IMG/VR virus record: IMGVR_UViG_3300023174_000037
Strand: one strand, 5' to 3'
DNA length: 64,000 bases
Origin: a virus
Lineage: Duplodnaviria; Caudoviricetes
A program made the position numbers and the translations under genes. Shown piece by piece: positions 11,289 through 21,376 of this stretch (positions within the stretch are counted from its first letter, which is position 1; each line of letters begins with the position of its first letter). Below the pieces are notes generated by a model that ran no database searches, was not told the origin of the DNA, and saw nothing but the letters and a program-made list of their open reading frames with translations.

Positions 11289-13946
11289 TTACCATTCAAA
11301 CAATGTTTGGAAAGTATTTTCTGTGTTAGTAGCACTGGCCAAGTCCCACTCCAACACACCTAACAAGTTATCTAATTTTTGATCTACAACCGTGGCTTCC
11401 ATTTCAGAATGATCAAAAGGTAGATCTTTAAACCATTGCGGTATATGAGTTTCGTCTGTGGGATAACCTATGCTGGTCCATCCTAGTGGATTACTTTTGA
11501 GTTTGCATACAATGGTTTTCATTCCATCCACGATCTGCATTGAATATTTGTCGCCGTTCATCCTACGCAAATTATTCCAATTAAGTGCAGCTCGCACATG
11601 CCCAGGCATGTTGGCTTTGCCTAGTCGTTCTTCTTCCTTGCCATACTTGGTCAAGTTGTTGACACGTTTAGGACTGCCTTTTTCCCAGCCTGGACGTTCT
11701 TTAAAAATGTATTTGAACTCTCGAATTTTTTCAATAATCTGGTCACGACTTGCGCCTACCAACACTTCGTTAAGAATTTCGCTTAAGAAATCTTGAATGA
11801 CCTTGGGAGTGTCACTGCGTTTTAGATCAAGACCCATGGCTTTTACTTTACCAGGACTTCCGTGTGTGTCTACACGTTTGTTCTCTTTGTCATAATACAT
11901 GACAGCATAACGCTTTTTAGTAATAAACAAGCCCTTGCTGGCCACAATCTCTCGCCCACCTTTGATCACTGACCCCATTTCACGTGGCACGTGGAATGCA
12001 GTTTCCATAAAGCCAGGAAAGCTATCGTTGACTTGGTCAGCAATACTGTTATACAGTTGAACAGCAATTTCTCTGTTCCAGGTCATTTCACCTTTGTCAA
12101 TTGATTCTTTAAGCACAGGATAGGCAGTAAAGTAACACGAGTCTGTGTCACCATAGATAATACTTTCACCTACGTGATCGTACTTGCCAGTGATACATTC
12201 GTTTACATAGGCATCCATGTGCCGGGCAATGGCACGACCTGTCAAAGTAGTTGACTGTCCAATACGTTTATCAAAGAATCTACAACCGGGATTAAGAATA
12301 GCACCATACAACGAATTCAAGTTAATTTTCTTAACTAGTTGTCGCTTGTCCCAATATTCCTCGTCTTCTGGCGTCTTTGCTTCTTTTAGTTTGGCCTGCA
12401 TGTCTTTACGTTCGGCGTACCAACGTTTTAACAAGCCTGGGATAACTGCTTCCTTTTCAAAAGTAAAGATTGTGCCATTGGCACTGAGCATCCATGGCCG
12501 GTTACTATCAAATATGATTTTCCATACATCAGCGGCACTGTGAACCGATTCTTCTCCGTCTTTCCAATCAATGGTAATTTCTGTTCCAGGCTCAGTATTT
12601 ATAACTGCGGAATATTCTAAGCTACCAAATAATCCCTCCCATGCCGCAGCAAAACTTGATCCACTACGCATTTTGTCTTGAATATAATGGTCAGTCATTA
12701 CGGGACGTAACTGTCCAACAATAGTTTCTGGTCCCATGTTAAGCGCACGAATGGCACTTGGATACAATGAGTTGATGTCTATTGATCCTACATATTCGTG
12801 GATGCCTTTGCGAGGATAAGCAACATAGGCACCTGCCGCTTGTGTGTCTTCGTCTGAGTAACGTTCTTTACGGTTCGGCACAACCATGCCACGTTCGTGC
12901 GCTTCATTGATAATGGCCTGTTCGGTTACGGCTACAGCACCCATTGTGGTCTGTAGTAGCACAGTATTTTCATGTGCCAGTGTATTAGCTAGATCCAAGA
13001 ACTTTAGTTTCTTGTCCAGCTTGGCAAGAATCATTGTGTCTTGACGGTTGTATTCAATAAACTTTTTGAAATTTTGATTATACAGTTGATCCAATGTGCC
13101 TTCGAACACTGTCTTGGTTTCTTGCAGTTCGTATTCAGCAATGGCATCCAAGCTATAACTATGACGTTCTTCATAAGTATATTTGCGATACAGTTGCATA
13201 TAGTCCATATGCACACGACCAATCAAGTCATATGTTTCGTTTTCTGCACCAAAGCGTTCAAACATACGTTTCTTGGGATATTGATTCCACAGACAAAATC
13301 TGCGGGTGTCGTCCTTGCTGAGCACACGAGTGACACGATTTACTGTGTAGGGTATATCATAGCCCTCACTGTTCCATCCAGACAATGCGTCAGCATCTTC
13401 GATGAGATCTAAAAATGTTTTTAACATCTCATCTTCACGTTCAAACACAATGCAGTTTTCAAATTCTCGAGCAATTTCATCTGCGGTTTCGCGACTCATG
13501 TGTTTGGGCGGAACAACTAGTGTAACCATTTGCTCTAGCCATTGCAAATAGACACTAATAGCAGTAATAGCATTGAATGGGTCTGTGGTTGGCGAAAATC
13601 CACGTTCTGGATCAAAGTCCACTTCAATGTCAAAAAACGCTACATTCAGTTTTGGGCCATCTTGGCCTTTGTAGTTGTCTTCTAGGCAACGAAAAATTGG
13701 ATTAATATCGGATTCATACAGTTGTTTGCCACTCTGTATACGAATTTCTTTACGAAACTCTTTGTTGTTACGAGTGCTGAATCTGCTAACAGGTGTGCCG
13801 AATAGGCTTTGGAATTTACCACGAGGATCCTCGTAATAAAAAATGTAGTTGGCCGGATATTCCTGATAGACTCTGCGGCCATCCTTCCGTTCAACCACAT
13901 GAATACGATCGTGTTCACGATCAAATAGTGCATCTACGTAACTCAA
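11289..13946 (-). CDS. polB: family B DNA polymerase with 3'-5' exonuclease
   Basis: FDIEV, GWNSEGYD, YNRQD (ExoI-III); DINSLYP, KINLNSLYG, YGDTDS (polymerase motifs). Confidence 0.98.
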   Translation of the reverse strand: MSYVDALFDREHDRIHVVERKDGRRVYQEYPANYIFYYEDPRGKFQSLFGTPVSRFSTRNNKEFRKEIRIQSGKQLYESDINPIFRCLEDNYKGQDGPKLNVAFFDIEVDFDPERGFSPTTDPFNAITAISVYLQWLEQMVTLVVPPKHMSRETADEIAREFENCIVFEREDEMLKTFLDLIEDADALSGWNSEGYDIPYTVNRVTRVLSKDDTRRFCLWNQYPKKRMFERFGAENETYDLIGRVHMDYMQLYRKYTYEERHSYSLDAIAEYELQETKTVFEGTLDQLYNQNFKKFIEYNRQDTMILAKLDKKLKFLDLANTLAHENTVLLQTTMGAVAVTEQAIINEAHERGMVVPNRKERYSDEDTQAAGAYVAYPRKGIHEYVGSIDINSLYPSAIRALNMGPETIVGQLRPVMTDHYIQDKMRSGSSFAAAWEGLFGSLEYSAVINTEPGTEITIDWKDGEESVHSAADVWKIIFDSNRPWMLSANGTIFTFEKEAVIPGLLKRWYAERKDMQAKLKEAKTPEDEEYWDKRQLVKKINLNSLYGAILNPGCRFFDKRIGQSTTLTGRAIARHMDAYVNECITGKYDHVGESIIYGDTDSCYFTAYPVLKESIDKGEMTWNREIAVQLYNSIADQVNDSFPGFMETAFHVPREMGSVIKGGREIVASKGLFITKKRYAVMYYDKENKRVDTHGSPGKVKAMGLDLKRSDTPKVIQDFLSEILNEVLVGASRDQIIEKIREFKYIFKERPGWEKGSPKRVNNLTKYGKEEERLGKANMPGHVRAALNWNNLRRMNGDKYSMQIVDGMKTIVCKLKSNPLGWTSIGYPTDETHIPQWFKDLPFDHSEMEATVVDQKLDNLLGVLEWDLASATNTENTFQTLFEW

Positions 13947-13949
13947 ATT

Positions 13950-14029
13950 TTTCTCCGTTTATGACCGGTTAGCCATGATTCATGTTCGTAACGTGAACGA
14001 CTCGATTGTTGTTGAAAACAATATTTATA
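13950..14029 (-). promoter_or_regulatory. TATAAATA late promoter and structured 5' leader of polB
   Basis: Exact T4 late consensus at 14022-14029; hairpins GTTC-N7-GAAC and ATGGCT-AACC-GGTCAT just before the GGAG RBS. Confidence 0.55.
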
Positions 14030-14288
14030 GTGTCTTGCCCACGCTGGTTAGAATTGTTTCTAACAATTCATGGTCCTGTTGTTCTCGGCCAAATTCAGCC
14101 TTGTGTGCCAGTTTGATAGCTTTCTTAAGGATATTGGGTTTGATATCCATTTCTTCGGCAATGGCCTTGACTGTGTCGTTGAGTCCGCCGGTTAAGGTTT
14201 CAATTTCCATCATGACCTGCATGCCTTCGTTGATCACTTGGGTAAGTTTGGCCTGTTCGGTACCGCTAAAAGTTCTGCTGTTAGACAT
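14025..14288 (-). CDS. T4 DsbA-like dsDNA-binding protein
   Basis: 87 aa helical protein; size and pattern (VKAIAEEMDIKPNILKKAIKLAHK) resemble the DsbA/GapR-like family. Confidence 0.6.
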   Translation of the reverse strand: MSNSRTFSGTEQAKLTQVINEGMQVMMEIETLTGGLNDTVKAIAEEMDIKPNILKKAIKLAHKAEFGREQQDHELLETILTSVGKTL

Positions 14289-15062: not shown

Positions 15063-15616
15063 AGGTAAGCTACTAGTATATCATCTATAGGATTCACCAC
15101 TCCAAAACTTGTACCACCGTCTAAGTATGTAATTTTATAGTTTGGATTAATTTCAAGTATTCGATCCACAATTGATTGCTTAGAAAGAAAGTTCCATGAC
15201 TCTGTATCAAACAAACGACAATCATCAATAAAAATAACATGATCCTTCCTAGGCGATAACGCAATAGCATCTAGCTCTTGAATCAATGGATTAGGCCCGT
15301 ATACATTGCTACCGGGTGTGTGTAAAGAAAAGCTACGATGTGCATCTAACCAAAATGTGCATCTTGCTGTTATTTTCTGTAAAATTTTTTGTAATACATC
15401 AGGACTGTCCCCGCAATGTATTTTTATGCAATCATTGTGTTTAAATCGTTGCTGGCACTGTTTAAATAACTGATAATTTATTTCAATGCTATGTATTGTC
15501 TGGAATCCAAAATCCATTGCAACTGCTACAGTATCGCCATGATATGTTCCTGTTTCTATAAACACGGTAGTTGAGCCTGAATATGTGTTGAGATAAAAAG
15601 TATTTAACTGTCCCAT
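15059..15616 (-). CDS. class I SAM-dependent methyltransferase-like protein
   Basis: FIETGTYHG, GDS, FWLDAH, IFIDD. Confidence 0.7.
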   Translation of the reverse strand: MGQLNTFYLNTYSGSTTVFIETGTYHGDTVAVAMDFGFQTIHSIEINYQLFKQCQQRFKHNDCIKIHCGDSPDVLQKILQKITARCTFWLDAHRSFSLHTPGSNVYGPNPLIQELDAIALSPRKDHVIFIDDCRLFDTESWNFLSKQSIVDRILEINPNYKITYLDGGTSFGVVNPIDDILVAYL

Positions 15617-16731
15617 TAGATAAATCTTTGTAGTATTATTTCTGCTGTGTGTTGATTATGCTCCTTACACCGACGCTCAAACTCGCCAGACCATATTATG
15701 TCGGCATTATGTTTTGAACTTTCTTGTGTCATGTCATTGATGTCAGATATTGAATAATTTTTTAAATCAATTATTGTATCAATCATACTGGATAAGCGAG
15801 ACAAGTTTCCAGGATCTTGGTCCCAAGACAGATCAATACTGCCGTAGTCAAACTTTAGACCAAGTTTAGTAAGTTGTCCGTAGAAATCAAACTGCCCTAC
15901 TGATATAAAAGGGGTTTGAGACAATAGACATTTAAAAGTTTTTTCACTGACATGCGGCCCAGGGCGAATAGAAGTAATTCCATTGTGAGACATTTGGCTA
16001 TAAGGATAACTTTCGTTGTTTAAATGTATAGCAGAATCTAAATAAAATGGTTGCCATGGGATGCTGTTTCTTCTTTGATAATTATGCGTATTATTAGTGA
16101 ACTCATCAACTAGTATTTCGTGCCCGTAATACTTTTCAAAAAAGATTTTAGACAAATTGTCTAATTTTTCTACTCCAGTTGGTTGCCCGTGATGAATATT
16201 TTTTTCCTCCATCCAGGTTCCTAATTTAACCAATAGATCTTCACGATCAAAGTTTTCTAACAAGGCGGTAGTTACTAGTAATTTACTTTGTGTGATACGA
16301 TTACAAATAGCACTTATTTTATATTTTAAATTTCTATTTTGTCTGTTAGGAAACCAATCCATCATTTGACGCAGATGTATATGCCAACTGTAAAAATTAA
16401 AAAAATGCACATTGTCGGGCCACGGAAAATCATAATCAGATCCATCAGCCAAAACAATAATAGGTTGTGTTATTTTTTTACATTGATCGAGCAACCAAAC
16501 ACAGTCTACTGCTTCGGAATGAAAAGACACAACATAAAGATTGTGTCCAGTAGGCAACTCTATTGAGTCAACATTGGCACTGGGCCACCTTACCCATAGT
16601 GCAAAGTAAGTGTCTTTTGGTAAATCTTGAAACCACTGGTAATCTTTCCAAAGTGTTGGAAAGGGCTGTGTTCCTATCAATGTTCCGGGTGCAATTTCCT
16701 CTTTTTCTGGAGGCAACGTACGATATGTCAT
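15616..16731 (-). CDS. hypothetical protein
   Basis: 371 aa ORF in the AT-rich block; ESYPY...SEKTFKCLLSQTPF is reminiscent of GT10-like C-termini, but the match is weak. Confidence 0.7.
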   Translation of the reverse strand: MTYRTLPPEKEEIAPGTLIGTQPFPTLWKDYQWFQDLPKDTYFALWVRWPSANVDSIELPTGHNLYVVSFHSEAVDCVWLLDQCKKITQPIIVLADGSDYDFPWPDNVHFFNFYSWHIHLRQMMDWFPNRQNRNLKYKISAICNRITQSKLLVTTALLENFDREDLLVKLGTWMEEKNIHHGQPTGVEKLDNLSKIFFEKYYGHEILVDEFTNNTHNYQRRNSIPWQPFYLDSAIHLNNESYPYSQMSHNGITSIRPGPHVSEKTFKCLLSQTPFISVGQFDFYGQLTKLGLKFDYGSIDLSWDQDPGNLSRLSSMIDTIIDLKNYSISDINDMTQESSKHNADIIWSGEFERRCKEHNQHTAEIILQRFI

Positions 16732-16769
16732 ATGTTTTATATATCATTAAACTTTGACGGGTGGTATTA

Positions 16770-16970
16770 AATGCTCACTTCAAGATACCATTCCGGGGCA
16801 CGACTCCCATAATATCTAGCCCAGCAGCCGGGCACACCTGAAGTAACGCTAACGTTCCTAAGGTAGGTGTTCTATTCTTTTGGAGGACAACAGTAAGATG
16901 GATCACACCAATCAGTTTGAGCGATGTATCCAGCGTAGGCCACGCCACAAACATACATAGCCAATGCACA
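16770..16970 (-). ncRNA. candidate structured non-coding RNA
   Basis: At least four helices; several need G-U pairs that exist only on the minus strand (see findings). Confidence 0.55.
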
Positions 16971-16980
16971 AATAATATTT

Positions 16981-17052
16981 TTATACAGGGCTGTAGGGGT
17001 TCTTTGTAGTGTCATAACCATCGTCCTCTGGGTATACTGGATAAGGGTTCAT
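16981..17052 (-). CDS. 23 aa micro-ORF MNPYPVYPEDDGYDTTKNPYSPV
   Basis: ATG overlaps the TGA of the deaminase gene; hand-translated. Confidence 0.6.
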   Translation of the reverse strand: MNPYPVYPEDDGYDTTKNPYSPV

Positions 17053-17681
17053 TTTCCATCCACGTGTAATTGACTGCCTTTGTTGAAGCTGGGGCTAAAT
17101 GGACTCTGTGCCACACGCCCACCTTTGCTTTGACTCCATGCATAACCAGCACGATGACCTGAACAGTCTTTGGTGCAGGTTGATCCTAAGAAACTGAGTT
17201 CGTTTAGATCATCTTTTAAAAATGTATCAGCAAAGGCTTTGCATAATTTTTCAATTTTGGGATTGCGAGTAATTTCTATGTGATACTGTTTACGTATGCG
17301 TTCCTGGCTAGGATCTTGATAGCCGGCATAAACTTTATGAACACCAACATCGTCAACAAGATCACTACAGTTAATGCCCGCACGTTCGTCCATGTCCTGA
17401 GTGCATGGGCTACAAGTTGTGATAATAATGCTACCAGCAGGAATCTCGCCAAAGCGGGCATAGTAACTGTCTATGGCTGCACGTTCACCGTGAACACGCT
17501 TGCCATCTTTGGTAGGATAATTGATGCCTACTACACAATTGTTATCAGGATCTAACACTGCGGCTGCTACCATACCTAGGTCTTGATCTTTTTGTTGGCC
17601 TTGAATGACCATTTCGCAAAGACGCACTAGAATTTGATCTAGCTTGTTGTGATTGCTAATTTGAAAATCTGATATCTTCAT
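17049..17681 (-). CDS. cytidine/deoxycytidylate deaminase-fold protein with a C-terminal Cys module
   Basis: HGERAAI (HxE) and CSPC (CxxC) zinc motifs; tail CTKDCSGH after LNE. Confidence 0.8.
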   Translation of the reverse strand: MKISDFQISNHNKLDQILVRLCEMVIQGQQKDQDLGMVAAAVLDPDNNCVVGINYPTKDGKRVHGERAAIDSYYARFGEIPAGSIIITTCSPCTQDMDERAGINCSDLVDDVGVHKVYAGYQDPSQERIRKQYHIEITRNPKIEKLCKAFADTFLKDDLNELSFLGSTCTKDCSGHRAGYAWSQSKGGRVAQSPFSPSFNKGSQLHVDGK

Positions 17682-20600
17682 TAGGCACCAAGAATTTGTC
17701 GAACTTGATTGACATAAGCACTGACATCACTGGTGCCAATTTCATCTACGTCACCCACATTGTAGGCCACTTCCTCTGCGGCCTGCATGACCTTGTCGGG
17801 ACCAAACTTCATCAACAGGTCTGTGTGTGCAACCATGATACGATTTAAGATAGCACGTTCAACTGCTTCACTGGCAGTGCTGGATTCTTCTCTAACAGGA
17901 TCTTTTAGCTTGCCGTAACGTGCTTCTAAATCTTTAAGAGCTTGTTTAATAATTTGTTTGTTGGCTGGATTAGAATCAACTGCCATCATACGGAATAACT
18001 TGTCGCGTTGATCCAAATACTCTTTGCGTGTAGTGGGTTCTTTCATCAAGCCTTCCGCCACACCTTGGTCTTTGTGTTTCTTAACGTCATTGGCAAATTG
18101 TTTTTTGGTTGCCTTTATGATTCCTGCAAAACGTTTGTCACCACGCTCAAAGTTGCCTGCTTTGTCGGCAGCACCAGCATCAAGTGCTGCGGCCTGTTTG
18201 TATTGACTTAATTTTTCATTGCTTAATTCATTTACAGTAGGGTTAGCACCGGTCAAGCTCACAGTCCACTTCTTACCGCTTGTAGCAGATTTCTTTTCTG
18301 CCCAACGACGCATGCCGTTTAGGTAAGCACGTTCTTCGGCACTGTCGGCGTAGCCTTTGCCTGGCACAACTTTCCAAACTTTACCGTTGATGGCAATGGC
18401 AATGTTGTTTCGCTCGTGACCTAGTTCGTGTTGCAGTTCTTTGCGTTTGAACTCACGACGCTCGTGATCACCTAGGCCTTCGCCCATTTCCATGTCCTTA
18501 CGATCTTTAGCACGTTTACGAGCATAGTCAGTCTGTGGATTCTTGGGTACGGGTTTAACCGGACGGCCAGCATCTACGTCACGCTCGCGTTGACGACGTT
18601 TTTGATAATCTGTCTGTGCTTCCGCCATACCTTTTGGTTTTTTGTGATGCTTCTTCATGTTGATAGCAATGGCCGCCTGCTGTGCTGGATTGGCAGCTTC
18701 GTCCAGTTGATCATCTGAGAAAGCCATAAAGTCATATGGTCCCCAGGGTTGGCCTGTGCGACCGTCATTGCCATCTAGATCACCATGCTCATAGTAGTCG
18801 TCACTGTAGATTTCTACACCGTCAAAGTCACTATTGTAATCAATATGTAGTTTACGTGTGACACCGTCGGGACAAACAATGCCACGATTCAGCAGGCGCT
18901 CTACGTCTTCTTTGCTCTTGATTCCTTTTTGCAAACTGCCAGTGTTGAATGTGCCATTGTACCAAGCACTGGCTAAAGCCTGGAAGTAATTGCCTGAGCC
19001 ACTTCCACCTGCAGGGGCAAATTCTTTTAAAGAGTTGCTTTTTGCTTTGGCAGCCGCTTCACGCTTCTTGCGGAAGATCTCACGGAAGTAATCATCATCT
19101 TCTTCCGGGCTGTAAGGATATGGATTGTGGTCACTACTGGGTCGTTTACGAGGTATATCTCCAGGACGGTCGTAATCAATGCCCGGCAAATCTTCCGGTC
19201 TAGCTTCTTCAACTTTGCCGGCGTTACGAGCTTTCCATGCAGTGGCATAGGCAATAGCTTTATCTTTGTCACTTAACCGGCCGTCTTTGCTCAAACTCTT
19301 TTTAATATGCTTGACCATACGTTCAGCTTTGGCACCAGGAGGAGCCACTTCTGTTACACCTTTGGCCTTGGCTTCTCGATCCAAATCTAGTCTACGTTGT
19401 AGGACAGCCGCTTGGTCAACATCTTTGTTCATTGACAAATCTTGTAAGGCTTTGCGTTTGGCCGCATAATCACCTTGAGGATCCTTTGAATTTAGTGCTG
19501 TTTCGGCTACCCGGTGGTTTATGCTCTCACCACCACCGTCTCCGCCGCCGTCACCTGATTCGCCGCCTCCATAATATGCATAGCCAGGAAAGAAATAACC
19601 TCCCATTGCTTTTGAAGATTTTTTCTTTTTCTTTTTCTTGCCTTCTGCTACACCTTCATCATACCAATCATTTTCTTCCTCTTGGTCAGCGTAATCATTA
19701 TAAGCAACATCACTTAGGTGCATACTGTGTTTGCCGTGATTGTATAAGTCCACAATAACAAATGAGCCACTTGGACTGAAATCATATATCTCACCAGTCT
19801 TGCCTTCAAACTCATTGGGTGCTATTACCACAACTGGATCGCCACGTTGTAGGCGTTGGCCTTCGTTTATAGCTTCTGCTGCTCGTTTTAAACTCTGAAC
19901 AGGCGGTTGTGTTTCTGCATCGTTGTCTGGAAATAAGTCAACCACATTACCACCTCTCATGCTAGCGGGTGCTGGATTATTGTTAATACCTTGAACTTGT
20001 CTTGGTTGTGACAAACTCCGAGCCATTTGACTCATCGCATTGGATTTTGATTTAAATTGTTGCACAGGCTCAGCTGGTTCAGCTTTGGCTGCAGGTTGGG
20101 CTTGGGGTTCTGCATCTGCAGGAGCATTTGGAATTAAATTAATTGCTCGAGATTGCGATCTATCAGTAGTATCAGTGCCGTCGGACTGACCTTGTCCGCT
20201 CATTTGGCCAATGGTCTGTGCTAGTTTTGCATTGGTTTGTTCTACATTTGCTAGTTGTTGTTCCAGACGGTCGTTTTCATTATCTAAACTGCCAATTTCT
20301 TTGCCTTGTTTTCGATCCAGAGCCACTAGCTGTTGTAGCAGTCGATCTTGTTCGGTGTTGGCACCTTTGATAGCCGACAATTGTTGTTGGCTTCGCTCGT
20401 TGGAATCTATTTCACTTTTGGCCACAGCTTCCACATCGCTTCGCGCCGCAGGATATTGAGCACGAAGTTTTTGTAACTCTCTAGCAACTTTAACATCGCC
20501 AGCGGCTACATCCGAATTGGAGTTAAACTTTTTTTTTTCTTGTAGTGGCAGTTCGCCCTGGGTAGGAATGCCTGGAAGTTCGGGCTGGACTGCACTATGC

Positions 20601-21376
20601 CAACCTAATCGTTTCAAAGTGGTCACGACTTCATCTGCGCTGGGCAATACACGATAGATAAAATGATTTTTCATTTGATCATTTTCTAAGCCATCGTAAT
20701 AGTCGCTGATCAAGTCAAGGCCTTTTTTATCTAAATGAATGTTGTCTTTGGGGTTAGGAAATTCTAATGTAACACTAGGAATATTACCCATGTTGGCTTT
20801 AAGTAATCGTTGGAAGTTGCCTACACCAAATGCTCTAGGCGACTGTGGGTAATCTCCATATGGGCTTTTTTCTTCACGAAATGCTTCTGGTGGGTTTTCT
20901 TTGAGCATACGCTCAACTTGTGCAACATAAGCACTGACATCACTTGAACCAATTTCGTCAACATCGCCCACATAGTCGGCCACATTGTCAATGGCTGCAC
21001 CTACCAGTTCAGGACCGTATTGTTTTAATAAATCGTGACGTTGCATCAAAATACGACGAGTGATTGCGCTGGCCACTGGACTGTCGTGTTGCTCATCCAA
21101 CTTGCCTTTAGTTGTGCCCAGACTTCCTGTAGGGTCCATACCGGTGGCAGGATTAATTTTAAAGTAGCTGTCACGTTCGGCTTTGATCTTTTGAAATTGT
21201 TTCTTAAGTCCAGCCAATGCCGCAGGATTCTTTTTGTAAGCAGGTTCTTTGGCACTATCTAACAGTTCTAACATTCGCATGTTTAGGTCATCAATGCGGC
21301 GAGCTTCAAGGTTGTCTACTGCACCTTCTTTGAGTTCTCGTTCATATTTTGTGTTGAATAGGTCTAATGCAAACAT
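17681..21376 (-). CDS. 1231 aa modular putative internal head polyprotein
   Basis: String of short unrelated modules, many starting right after [VLIM]xE; one domain is duplicated at both ends. Confidence 0.75.
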   Translation of the reverse strand: MFALDLFNTKYERELKEGAVDNLEARRIDDLNMRMLELLDSAKEPAYKKNPAALAGLKKQFQKIKAERDSYFKINPATGMDPTGSLGTTKGKLDEQHDSPVASAITRRILMQRHDLLKQYGPELVGAAIDNVADYVGDVDEIGSSDVSAYVAQVERMLKENPPEAFREEKSPYGDYPQSPRAFGVGNFQRLLKANMGNIPSVTLEFPNPKDNIHLDKKGLDLISDYYDGLENDQMKNHFIYRVLPSADEVVTTLKRLGWHSAVQPELPGIPTQGELPLQEKKKFNSNSDVAAGDVKVARELQKLRAQYPAARSDVEAVAKSEIDSNERSQQQLSAIKGANTEQDRLLQQLVALDRKQGKEIGSLDNENDRLEQQLANVEQTNAKLAQTIGQMSGQGQSDGTDTTDRSQSRAINLIPNAPADAEPQAQPAAKAEPAEPVQQFKSKSNAMSQMARSLSQPRQVQGINNNPAPASMRGGNVVDLFPDNDAETQPPVQSLKRAAEAINEGQRLQRGDPVVVIAPNEFEGKTGEIYDFSPSGSFVIVDLYNHGKHSMHLSDVAYNDYADQEEENDWYDEGVAEGKKKKKKKSSKAMGGYFFPGYAYYGGGESGDGGGDGGGESINHRVAETALNSKDPQGDYAAKRKALQDLSMNKDVDQAAVLQRRLDLDREAKAKGVTEVAPPGAKAERMVKHIKKSLSKDGRLSDKDKAIAYATAWKARNAGKVEEARPEDLPGIDYDRPGDIPRKRPSSDHNPYPYSPEEDDDYFREIFRKKREAAAKAKSNSLKEFAPAGGSGSGNYFQALASAWYNGTFNTGSLQKGIKSKEDVERLLNRGIVCPDGVTRKLHIDYNSDFDGVEIYSDDYYEHGDLDGNDGRTGQPWGPYDFMAFSDDQLDEAANPAQQAAIAINMKKHHKKPKGMAEAQTDYQKRRQRERDVDAGRPVKPVPKNPQTDYARKRAKDRKDMEMGEGLGDHERREFKRKELQHELGHERNNIAIAINGKVWKVVPGKGYADSAEERAYLNGMRRWAEKKSATSGKKWTVSLTGANPTVNELSNEKLSQYKQAAALDAGAADKAGNFERGDKRFAGIIKATKKQFANDVKKHKDQGVAEGLMKEPTTRKEYLDQRDKLFRMMAVDSNPANKQIIKQALKDLEARYGKLKDPVREESSTASEAVERAILNRIMVAHTDLLMKFGPDKVMQAAEEVAYNVGDVDEIGTSDVSAYVNQVRQILGA

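Follow-up and report, generated by a model that had tools for sequence, protein, structure and literature searches.

A pseudoknotted RNA of uncultured freshwater giant phages with complementarity to helix 69 of 23S rRNA

The phage DNA analyzed here, a 64,000-nucleotide stretch of IMG/VR virus record IMGVR_UViG_3300023174_000037 (the window), encodes on its minus strand a structured RNA of roughly 100 nt (16773–16870), and the family to which this RNA belongs is common to hundreds of uncultured freshwater giant phages. The existence of this structured RNA family is near certain. Judging from sequence, there is close to an even chance that the RNA acts by base pairing with large-subunit rRNA in the region of helix 69. 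The source of the window is a T4-related jumbo phage. Its family B DNA polymerase (11289–13946) has its closest cultured relatives in Sinorhizobium phage Phosso and Agrobacterium phage Atu_ph07 (47–50% identity), and the window DNA was found in runs from freshwater and lake metagenomes.

Conservation and fold of the RNA

Using the neighboring dCMP-deaminase-like gene as an anchor, we collected 80 IMG/VR loci. BLAST of the region revealed conservation only in a block of ~105 nt (window ~16767–16876; 77–92% DNA identity); the flanks were not conserved, and the distance between block and deaminase varied among loci. A 17-nt pattern taken from the block retrieved at least 120 further contigs and a type-B pattern at least 120 more; the family numbers at least 240 IMG/VR contigs, no fewer than 120 each of type A and type B. 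In type A, which includes the window, helix P3 encloses a small hairpin with the loop AGUCGUGC, and in type B P3 is a plain hairpin with the loop AUUCGCUACC. An alignment of 94 unique copies contained 41 invariant columns; in type-A copies CCUUAGG was invariant (94 of 94) and CUA/GUUAC was at least 90% conserved. Nearly all of the 56 copies in the deaminase-anchored set, which is unbiased for motifs, carry CCUU(A/G)GG together with a loop of either type or a close variant thereof, the exception (L007) being the weakest match. Subgroups with other scaffolds retain both loops, as found with a pattern that demanded both. One subgroup (L219, L319 and L323) has no P2 pseudoknot, and a U run behind its AUUCGCUACC hairpin gives the pair the look of an intrinsic terminator.

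The preliminary description of this DNA had proposed a structured noncoding RNA on the minus strand, and comparison of homologues bears this out. A covariance model built from them gave exactly one match in the window (16769–16876; 118.7 bits, E 5e-28), matched downstream of the deaminase in nearly every anchored locus, divergent ones included, and, in two complete genomes of 345 kb that have terminal repeats, matched exactly once per genome. In the 97-sequence model alignment, 25 of the 31 modelled pairs were compensated, pseudoknot included, and 90.0% of cells were paired, compared with 67.5% in shuffles and 28–46% in slid controls. In another alignment (A1), 94.1% of cells were paired versus 82.2% when shuffled, and 16 pairs had changed on both sides. 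These figures come from RNAalifold and explicit pair counting. The 140-nt gap that holds the element, folded as a single sequence, gave z values of −0.49 and −0.06 for the two strands, no improvement on shuffles; thus, support for the fold comes from comparison and not from folding energy. The minus strand is fixed by U-G pairs that recur at the same positions (one is present in 91 of 91 sequences), as had been argued from the window alone.

The architecture read from these sequences is P1/P1a, then P2 with a loop-tail H-type pseudoknot, then P3/P3a. All of its parts lie on the minus strand. The element is preceded by an A-rich 5′ flank, AAUAGA (16871–16876), which holds the UAG stop (16872–16874) of a 49-aa ORF and is A/U-rich throughout the family. 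P1 pairs ACACCU (16865–16870) with AGGUGU (16834–16839); all six of its pairs are compensated in the 97-sequence alignment, with variants including AUACAC/GUGUAU and ACCCU/AGGGU. This helix and its inner ACG-UUAG-CGU hairpin had been seen by the preliminary description, and both are present with compensatory changes in homologues. The segment resembling antisense 23S rRNA, CUACCUUAGGAACGUUAGCGUUAC (16843–16866), spans the P1 internal loop, the P1a hairpin (16853–16855 with 16846–16848) and GUUAC.

The P2 hairpin (16819–16833) has a GCCC/GGGC stem (16830–16833 with 16819–16822) and the loop GGCUGCU (16823–16829). Its four stem pairs are all compensated in the same alignment, the innermost in only 2 of 97 sequences, and 99.7–100% of cells are paired. 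This hairpin had been drawn as GCCCGG/CUGGGC; its inner two pairs are better read as loop, because the pseudoknot with the 3′ tail uses them. P3 (16783–16817) consists of 9 bp (16809–16817 with 16783–16791) and encloses P3a (16806–16808 with 16795–16797), its loop and an unpaired GGA. Seven of the nine P3 pairs are compensated, with double-sided changes in up to 54 of 91 sequences per pair, and the closing pair of P3a is seen as G-C, A-U and C-G. P3 was likewise part of the preliminary description, which placed within it a GGG/CCC pairing around 7 nt; the helix stands, and the loop is 8 nt, since it is the fourth C that covaries with the first G.

The P2 loop, invariant in most members, is the partner of the pseudoknot. 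The 3′ tail UGAAGUGAGC (16773–16782) supplies the other strand: AGC (16773–16775) is predicted to pair with GCU (16826–16828) and AGU (16777–16779) with GCU (16823–16825), leaving G16776 bulged. We relied on column-wise pair counts, the search for the longest run between loop and tail having proved uninformative. One loop/tail pair is C-G in 85 sequences, G-C in 9 and U-G in 1, and another is G-C in 94 and A-U in 1. The loop pairs with the tail in both type A and type B, with many independent compensations, as in GGCUGCU/GUGAGC, GGGUGCU/GUGACC, GGCUACU/GUAGC or GUGGC, GGCCACU/GUGUGGC and GACUGCU/GUGAGU. Loop and tail sequences unrelated to these still pair (CCUACA/UGUAGG, CCCCCA/UGGGGG, GGCGCUC/GAGCGUC), and unrelated but complementary combinations occur in L051, L073, L213, L214 and L080.

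We found no known class to which the RNA could be assigned, in keeping with the earlier remark that its family was not recognized. Rfam 15 at gathering thresholds had no match anywhere in the window; with E up to 10 on 16400–17400 it gave two irrelevant weak matches, both outside the element, and related loci were likewise without a match. ARAGORN predicted no tRNA or tmRNA gene in the window. Compared by eye, the order of parts and the motifs were unlike an anti-Shine-Dalgarno sequence, CsrA-binding GGA motifs, tRNA anticodon or T-loops, the cores of HDV-like, twister, pistol and hammerhead ribozymes, H/ACA and C/D guides, RNase P external guide sequences, the T4 gene 60 bypass, and bridge RNAs. 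A literature search found no description of this phage RNA or of a natural RNA directed against helix 69, and the main text of a catalogue of more than 10,000 candidate phage and virus RNAs does not mention the motif.

No cultured phage carrying the RNA turned up in the collections we searched. A blastn search of 50,697 deposited phage genomes returned no match to the region or the element, and model and motif checks found the RNA absent from Sinorhizobium phage Phosso, Agrobacterium phage Atu_ph07 and Vibrio phage 2.275.O. A pattern scan of genome contigs revealed no bacterial chromosomal homologue in the collection scanned; of three matches in all, one was a chance match in Salinimicrobium and two were phage-like contigs in Bacteroidota MAGs. 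These two contigs (L206 and L208) carry the RNA and are binned with Lishizhenia and Haliscomenobacter, a weak hint at the host phylum.

The locus and its expression

In the window the RNA lies among minus-strand genes. A 1231-aa protein gene (17681–21376) is followed by the dCMP-deaminase-like gene (17049–17681; PF00383) and by the 49-aa ORF (16872–17021), which encodes a small hydrophobic, Cys-rich peptide and is not part of the RNA. Homologues of this ORF were found by tblastn in L182, L162/L195 and L132, where they lie directly upstream of the RNA and share the C-terminal motif WCDPxYCCPPK; the conservation of this motif in protein homologues from four other phage loci indicates that the ORF is coding. 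Two elements of the preliminary description change as a result. The letters and coordinates of all four helices it listed can be read in the sequence, and the fourth (16958–16924) lies within this ORF, outside the conserved block, and is not conserved. The ORF-free interval, given as about 250 nt, was overstated: because the 49-aa gene is protein-coding, the true gap is 140 nt (16732–16871).

The next minus-strand gene after the gap encodes 371 aa (15616–16731). Further along, a DsbA-like 87-aa gene (14025–14288, minus strand; phrog_639, weak PF11126) lies just upstream of the DNA polymerase. In most relatives the DsbA-like gene directly follows the RNA. In the window genes of 371, 185 and 257 aa separate the two, and this insertion of three genes makes the interval look like a cargo hot spot.

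Across the family, the RNA follows closely upon coding sequence. In 146 of 171 loci (85%) the upstream ORF ends no more than 12 nt from CCUUAGG or at its internal UAG, the comparable figure for ordinary same-strand spacers being 49%. Such spacing leaves no room for a promoter of the RNA's own. In 47 of the 171 loci (for example, L162, L090, L112 and L125) the upstream ORF extends into the element, its stop codon being the UAG within the invariant CCUUAGG. With the stop in this position, unrelated proteins share the C-terminal ..NTLP, and a ribosome terminating there would be placed over the loop that resembles antisense 23S rRNA. The ORFs immediately upstream fall into 23 clusters. No promoter or terminator was predicted beside the element in the window; some copies elsewhere are followed by a GC hairpin terminator, and in one subgroup P3 and a U run together look like a terminator. 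An RNA library (X18) contains a 285-nt contig of a relative's element, seen as a contig only and open to DNA carry-over, and a second run (X20) covers only the end of the polyprotein, again in contigs only.

Complementarity to helix 69 and competing explanations

We take the invariant loop CUACCUUAGGAC to be the complement of the I-CeuI/helix 69 region of 23S rRNA. For comparison we used the E. coli rrn operon, which may differ from that of the host. The window segment 16866–16843 (minus strand) agrees with the reverse complement of E. coli 23S 1910–1933 at 21 of 24 positions, with an SW score of 33 against 20.2 ± 2.2 for shuffles (z 5.7). Two relatives match the antisense of E. coli 23S (~1908–1933) at 22 of 23 (L009) and 22 of 24 (L015) positions, with SW z values of 9.5 and 7.9. 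Positions 1910–1933 comprise the loop of helix 69, its 3′ strand and adjoining bases; in antisense, P1a corresponds to the hairpin of helix 69, and G1910–C1914 lie opposite the invariant GUUAC. Most of 137 unique copies contain exact complementary runs of 11–13 nt at 23S 1921–1933 (P ~0.004 by shuffling for a 13-nt run). No antisense similarity was found beyond helix 69 in neighboring 23S sequence, and no conserved sense-strand target was found within the complete phage genomes.

Type B adds a second segment. Its loop AUUCGCUACC provides a 9-nt complementary run at 23S 1929–1937 in 30 copies, and because this segment lies 3′ of the first, the two stand in an order different from that in a plain antisense copy of rDNA. 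This permutation speaks for selection on pairing and against a captured rDNA fragment that has been frozen. The corresponding type-A loop, GGAGUCGUGCC, had no convincing rRNA partner in complementarity searches.

An accessibility-aware cofold scan of ~440 rRNA windows, which charges the unfolding cost of both partners, placed the helix 69 region at the top for 7 of 10 diverse members and another rRNA region above it for the remaining 3. For the window RNA, the helix 69 energy was −18.6 kcal/mol against a mean of −4.5 (sd 2.8). The duplex energy of the isolated loop was −23.4 versus −18.5 ± 1.9 for shuffles, a modest difference of ~2.6 sd. The complementary bases are unpaired in the covariation-supported fold, and the element carries, at the level of sequence, the conserved and accessible complement beyond chance that would be expected of an antisense RNA pairing with rRNA. 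Part of the target, 23S 1920–1924, is paired within helix 69 in the mature 50S subunit, and in one subgroup CCUUAGG itself pairs with a downstream CCUAAGG. We hold the rRNA-pairing reading with restraint because of the modest loop energies, the partly paired target, this CCUUAGG-pairing subgroup and the partnerless type-A loop.

Several further complementarities were observed. In L051 (1324–1432) the loop variant CCCUUGGGACC complements another 23S site, 2535–2546 (GGUCCCAAGGGU), perfectly over 12 nt; this variant differs by a single A-to-G change, and the helix 69 flank can still pair, through G-U with U1926. The conserved type-A GGAAU (window 16792–16796, minus strand) is complementary to 23S 1938–1942 (AUUCC), a match of 5 nt that may be due to chance; these positions overlap the UUCCU site in helix 70 that is cut by MazF-mt6. 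The P2 loop region CGGCUGCUGG (16823–16832, minus strand) is complementary over 10–11 nt to 16S 518–527, in the region of the 530 loop, which neighbors helix 69 in the decoding center. We rejected this 16S pairing as a function; runs of 9–10 nt are expected by chance, and the loop changes in concert with the 3′ tail at the cost of the 16S match.

If the RNA does pair with rRNA, its action may be pictured as follows. The window locus (16773–16870, minus strand) would yield a single-copy ncRNA of ~100 nt, cotranscribed with the upstream gene, whose compact scaffold would display the unpaired invariant bases CUACCUUAGGA..GUUAC and, in type B, the second loop as well. The displayed loops would jointly be complementary to 23S 1910–1937, that is, to the loop and 3′ strand of helix 69 and the linker that leads into helix 70, and would pair with large-subunit rRNA at its subunit-interface face. 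The partner might be free 50S subunits or nascent, assembling 23S rRNA, and the acting form might be a released small RNA or one still within the polycistronic mRNA. Because helix 69 forms bridge B2a, the likely consequence would be interference with 50S subunits or their capture. We tentatively suggest, as a possible but doubtful extension, that the RNA docks on host 23S helix 69 and helix 70 (bridge B2a, the A-site face) and thereby controls the pool of joinable 50S subunits or ribosome assembly, possibly with a duplex of RNase III size. Helix 69 has a part in subunit joining, decoding, termination and recycling; as a counterpoint, pairing with it would block a structure needed for the phage's own translation.

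It is rather unlikely, though a serious alternative, that the element is protein-binding or purely structural, an intercistronic or 3′-UTR processing or stability signal or a protein scaffold whose likeness to antisense 23S rRNA is a relic or a coincidence. Its position directly after upstream stop codons inside operons would suit such a role, as would the terminators behind some copies, or P3 acting as a terminator. The ~50 invariant loop nucleotides would also fit a surface for protein or tertiary contacts, and the energies of the loop duplex stand only ~2.6 sd from shuffles. However, a relic leaves unexplained why rRNA-complementary bases remain invariant amid complete turnover of the helices and why type B has a second loop matching adjoining 23S bases in permuted order, and SW z values of up to 9.5 speak against coincidence.

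The RNA might also be a guide for a protein that acts on host 23S rRNA genes (DNA) or on rRNA, for instance by cutting or modification. The complementary site is the I-CeuI/helix 69 region, as the sequence confirms, which is universally conserved and multi-copy, and type B, with its bipartite and permuted guides, is reminiscent of guides displayed in loops. However, no nuclease or recombinase gene is consistently adjacent, the neighbors being the deaminase, the DsbA-like protein, the DNA polymerase and variable cargo, and the putative guides lie in internal loops, unlike known crRNA or omega-RNA layouts. We consider a guide function improbable.

A cis-regulatory leader, either a riboswitch or a translational operator for the gene immediately downstream, is in our judgment quite improbable. 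The highly conserved pseudoknotted fold is typical of aptamers, the next start codon lies 9–25 nt after the tail in some loci, and the DsbA-like gene, the most constant one downstream, is found in 155 of 255 loci. A leader would be expected to have a consistent, directly controlled class of downstream gene, but the immediately downstream genes fall into at least 28 unrelated clusters at variable distances (8 to >200 nt), often with promoter-like sequences or terminators in between. In the window three other genes stand between the RNA and the DsbA-like gene, and there is no conserved alternative pairing of an expression platform.

Very improbable, too, is a role in separating cistrons, whether as a self-cleaving ribozyme or as a processing signal for an RNase. 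The compact pseudoknotted fold with many invariant junction bases, placed between genes of a polycistronic transcript, would be compatible with such an element. However, the Rfam ribozyme families gave no match with E up to 10, and a cut at the 5′ edge of the element would strip the stop codon from the messages of those upstream ORFs, 47 of 171, that terminate at its internal UAG.

Finally, the explanation that the conservation reflects DNA-level constraint or a protein gene, namely the 64-aa ORF (16775–16969) that is open through the element in one frame in the window, is refuted: many homologues have in-frame stops and frame-shifting indels of 1–2 nt, so that this ORF fails as protein-coding sequence, whereas the compensatory changes and the G-U pairs specific to one strand agree with a folded transcript of the minus strand, and two outcomes that the preliminary description had named as fatal to its RNA, a lack of homologues with compensatory changes and conservation of the 64-aa ORF as protein, are contradicted.

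Significance and comparison with known systems

If the proposed pairing with 23S rRNA is correct, helix 69, among the most conserved and functionally central parts of the ribosome, would be the target of a natural RNA. This would open a new chapter in phage takeover of translation, an RNA-based manipulation of the ribosome for which we found no description; helix 69 would be reachable by a complementary strand in cells, and because the site is universal, one RNA could serve across many hosts. If the rRNA reading fails, there is still a large class of structured RNA outside the catalogued families, with a well-defined pseudoknot and ~50 invariant bases. Its presence as one copy per complete genome checked, in a widespread clade of uncultured jumbo phages, calls for a function.

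The RNA appears to resemble loop-displayed antisense RNAs and mRNA-rRNA pairing elements most, as a member of neither. Like CopA/CopT of plasmid R1, RNA I/RNA II of ColE1 and the seed-pairing sRNAs of bacteria and phages, it presents a short conserved loop or single strand on a stable scaffold. Where these systems act on an mRNA or a replication primer, the predicted target here is a universally conserved helix of rRNA. The phage RNA also differs in having an H-type pseudoknot as its scaffold and in lacking sequence homology to these RNAs, and its pairing is a prediction. P1a, a hairpin complementary to the hairpin of helix 69, recalls recognition by kissing loops. As with 3′-UTR-derived sRNAs such as CpxQ, the RNA would come from the 3′ side of a coding transcript, with no room for a promoter of its own.

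Pairing between mRNA and rRNA occurs in the Shine-Dalgarno/anti-Shine-Dalgarno interaction and in calicivirus TURBS, which tethers the 40S subunit through 18S helix 26. The phage element likewise offers a conserved rRNA-complementary stretch, here in a viral transcript, at a stop codon and gene junction. However, its complement is large-subunit rRNA, extends up to 24 nt and lies downstream of the stop codon, within a covarying pseudoknotted fold, and the downstream genes are not conserved. Synthetic oligomers against helix 69 exist as well, such as a PNA directed against helix 69 of E. coli 23S rRNA. This PNA has the same target region as that predicted for the phage RNA, and helix 69 is thus reachable in principle by a complementary strand; the PNA is artificial, whereas the phage RNA is natural.
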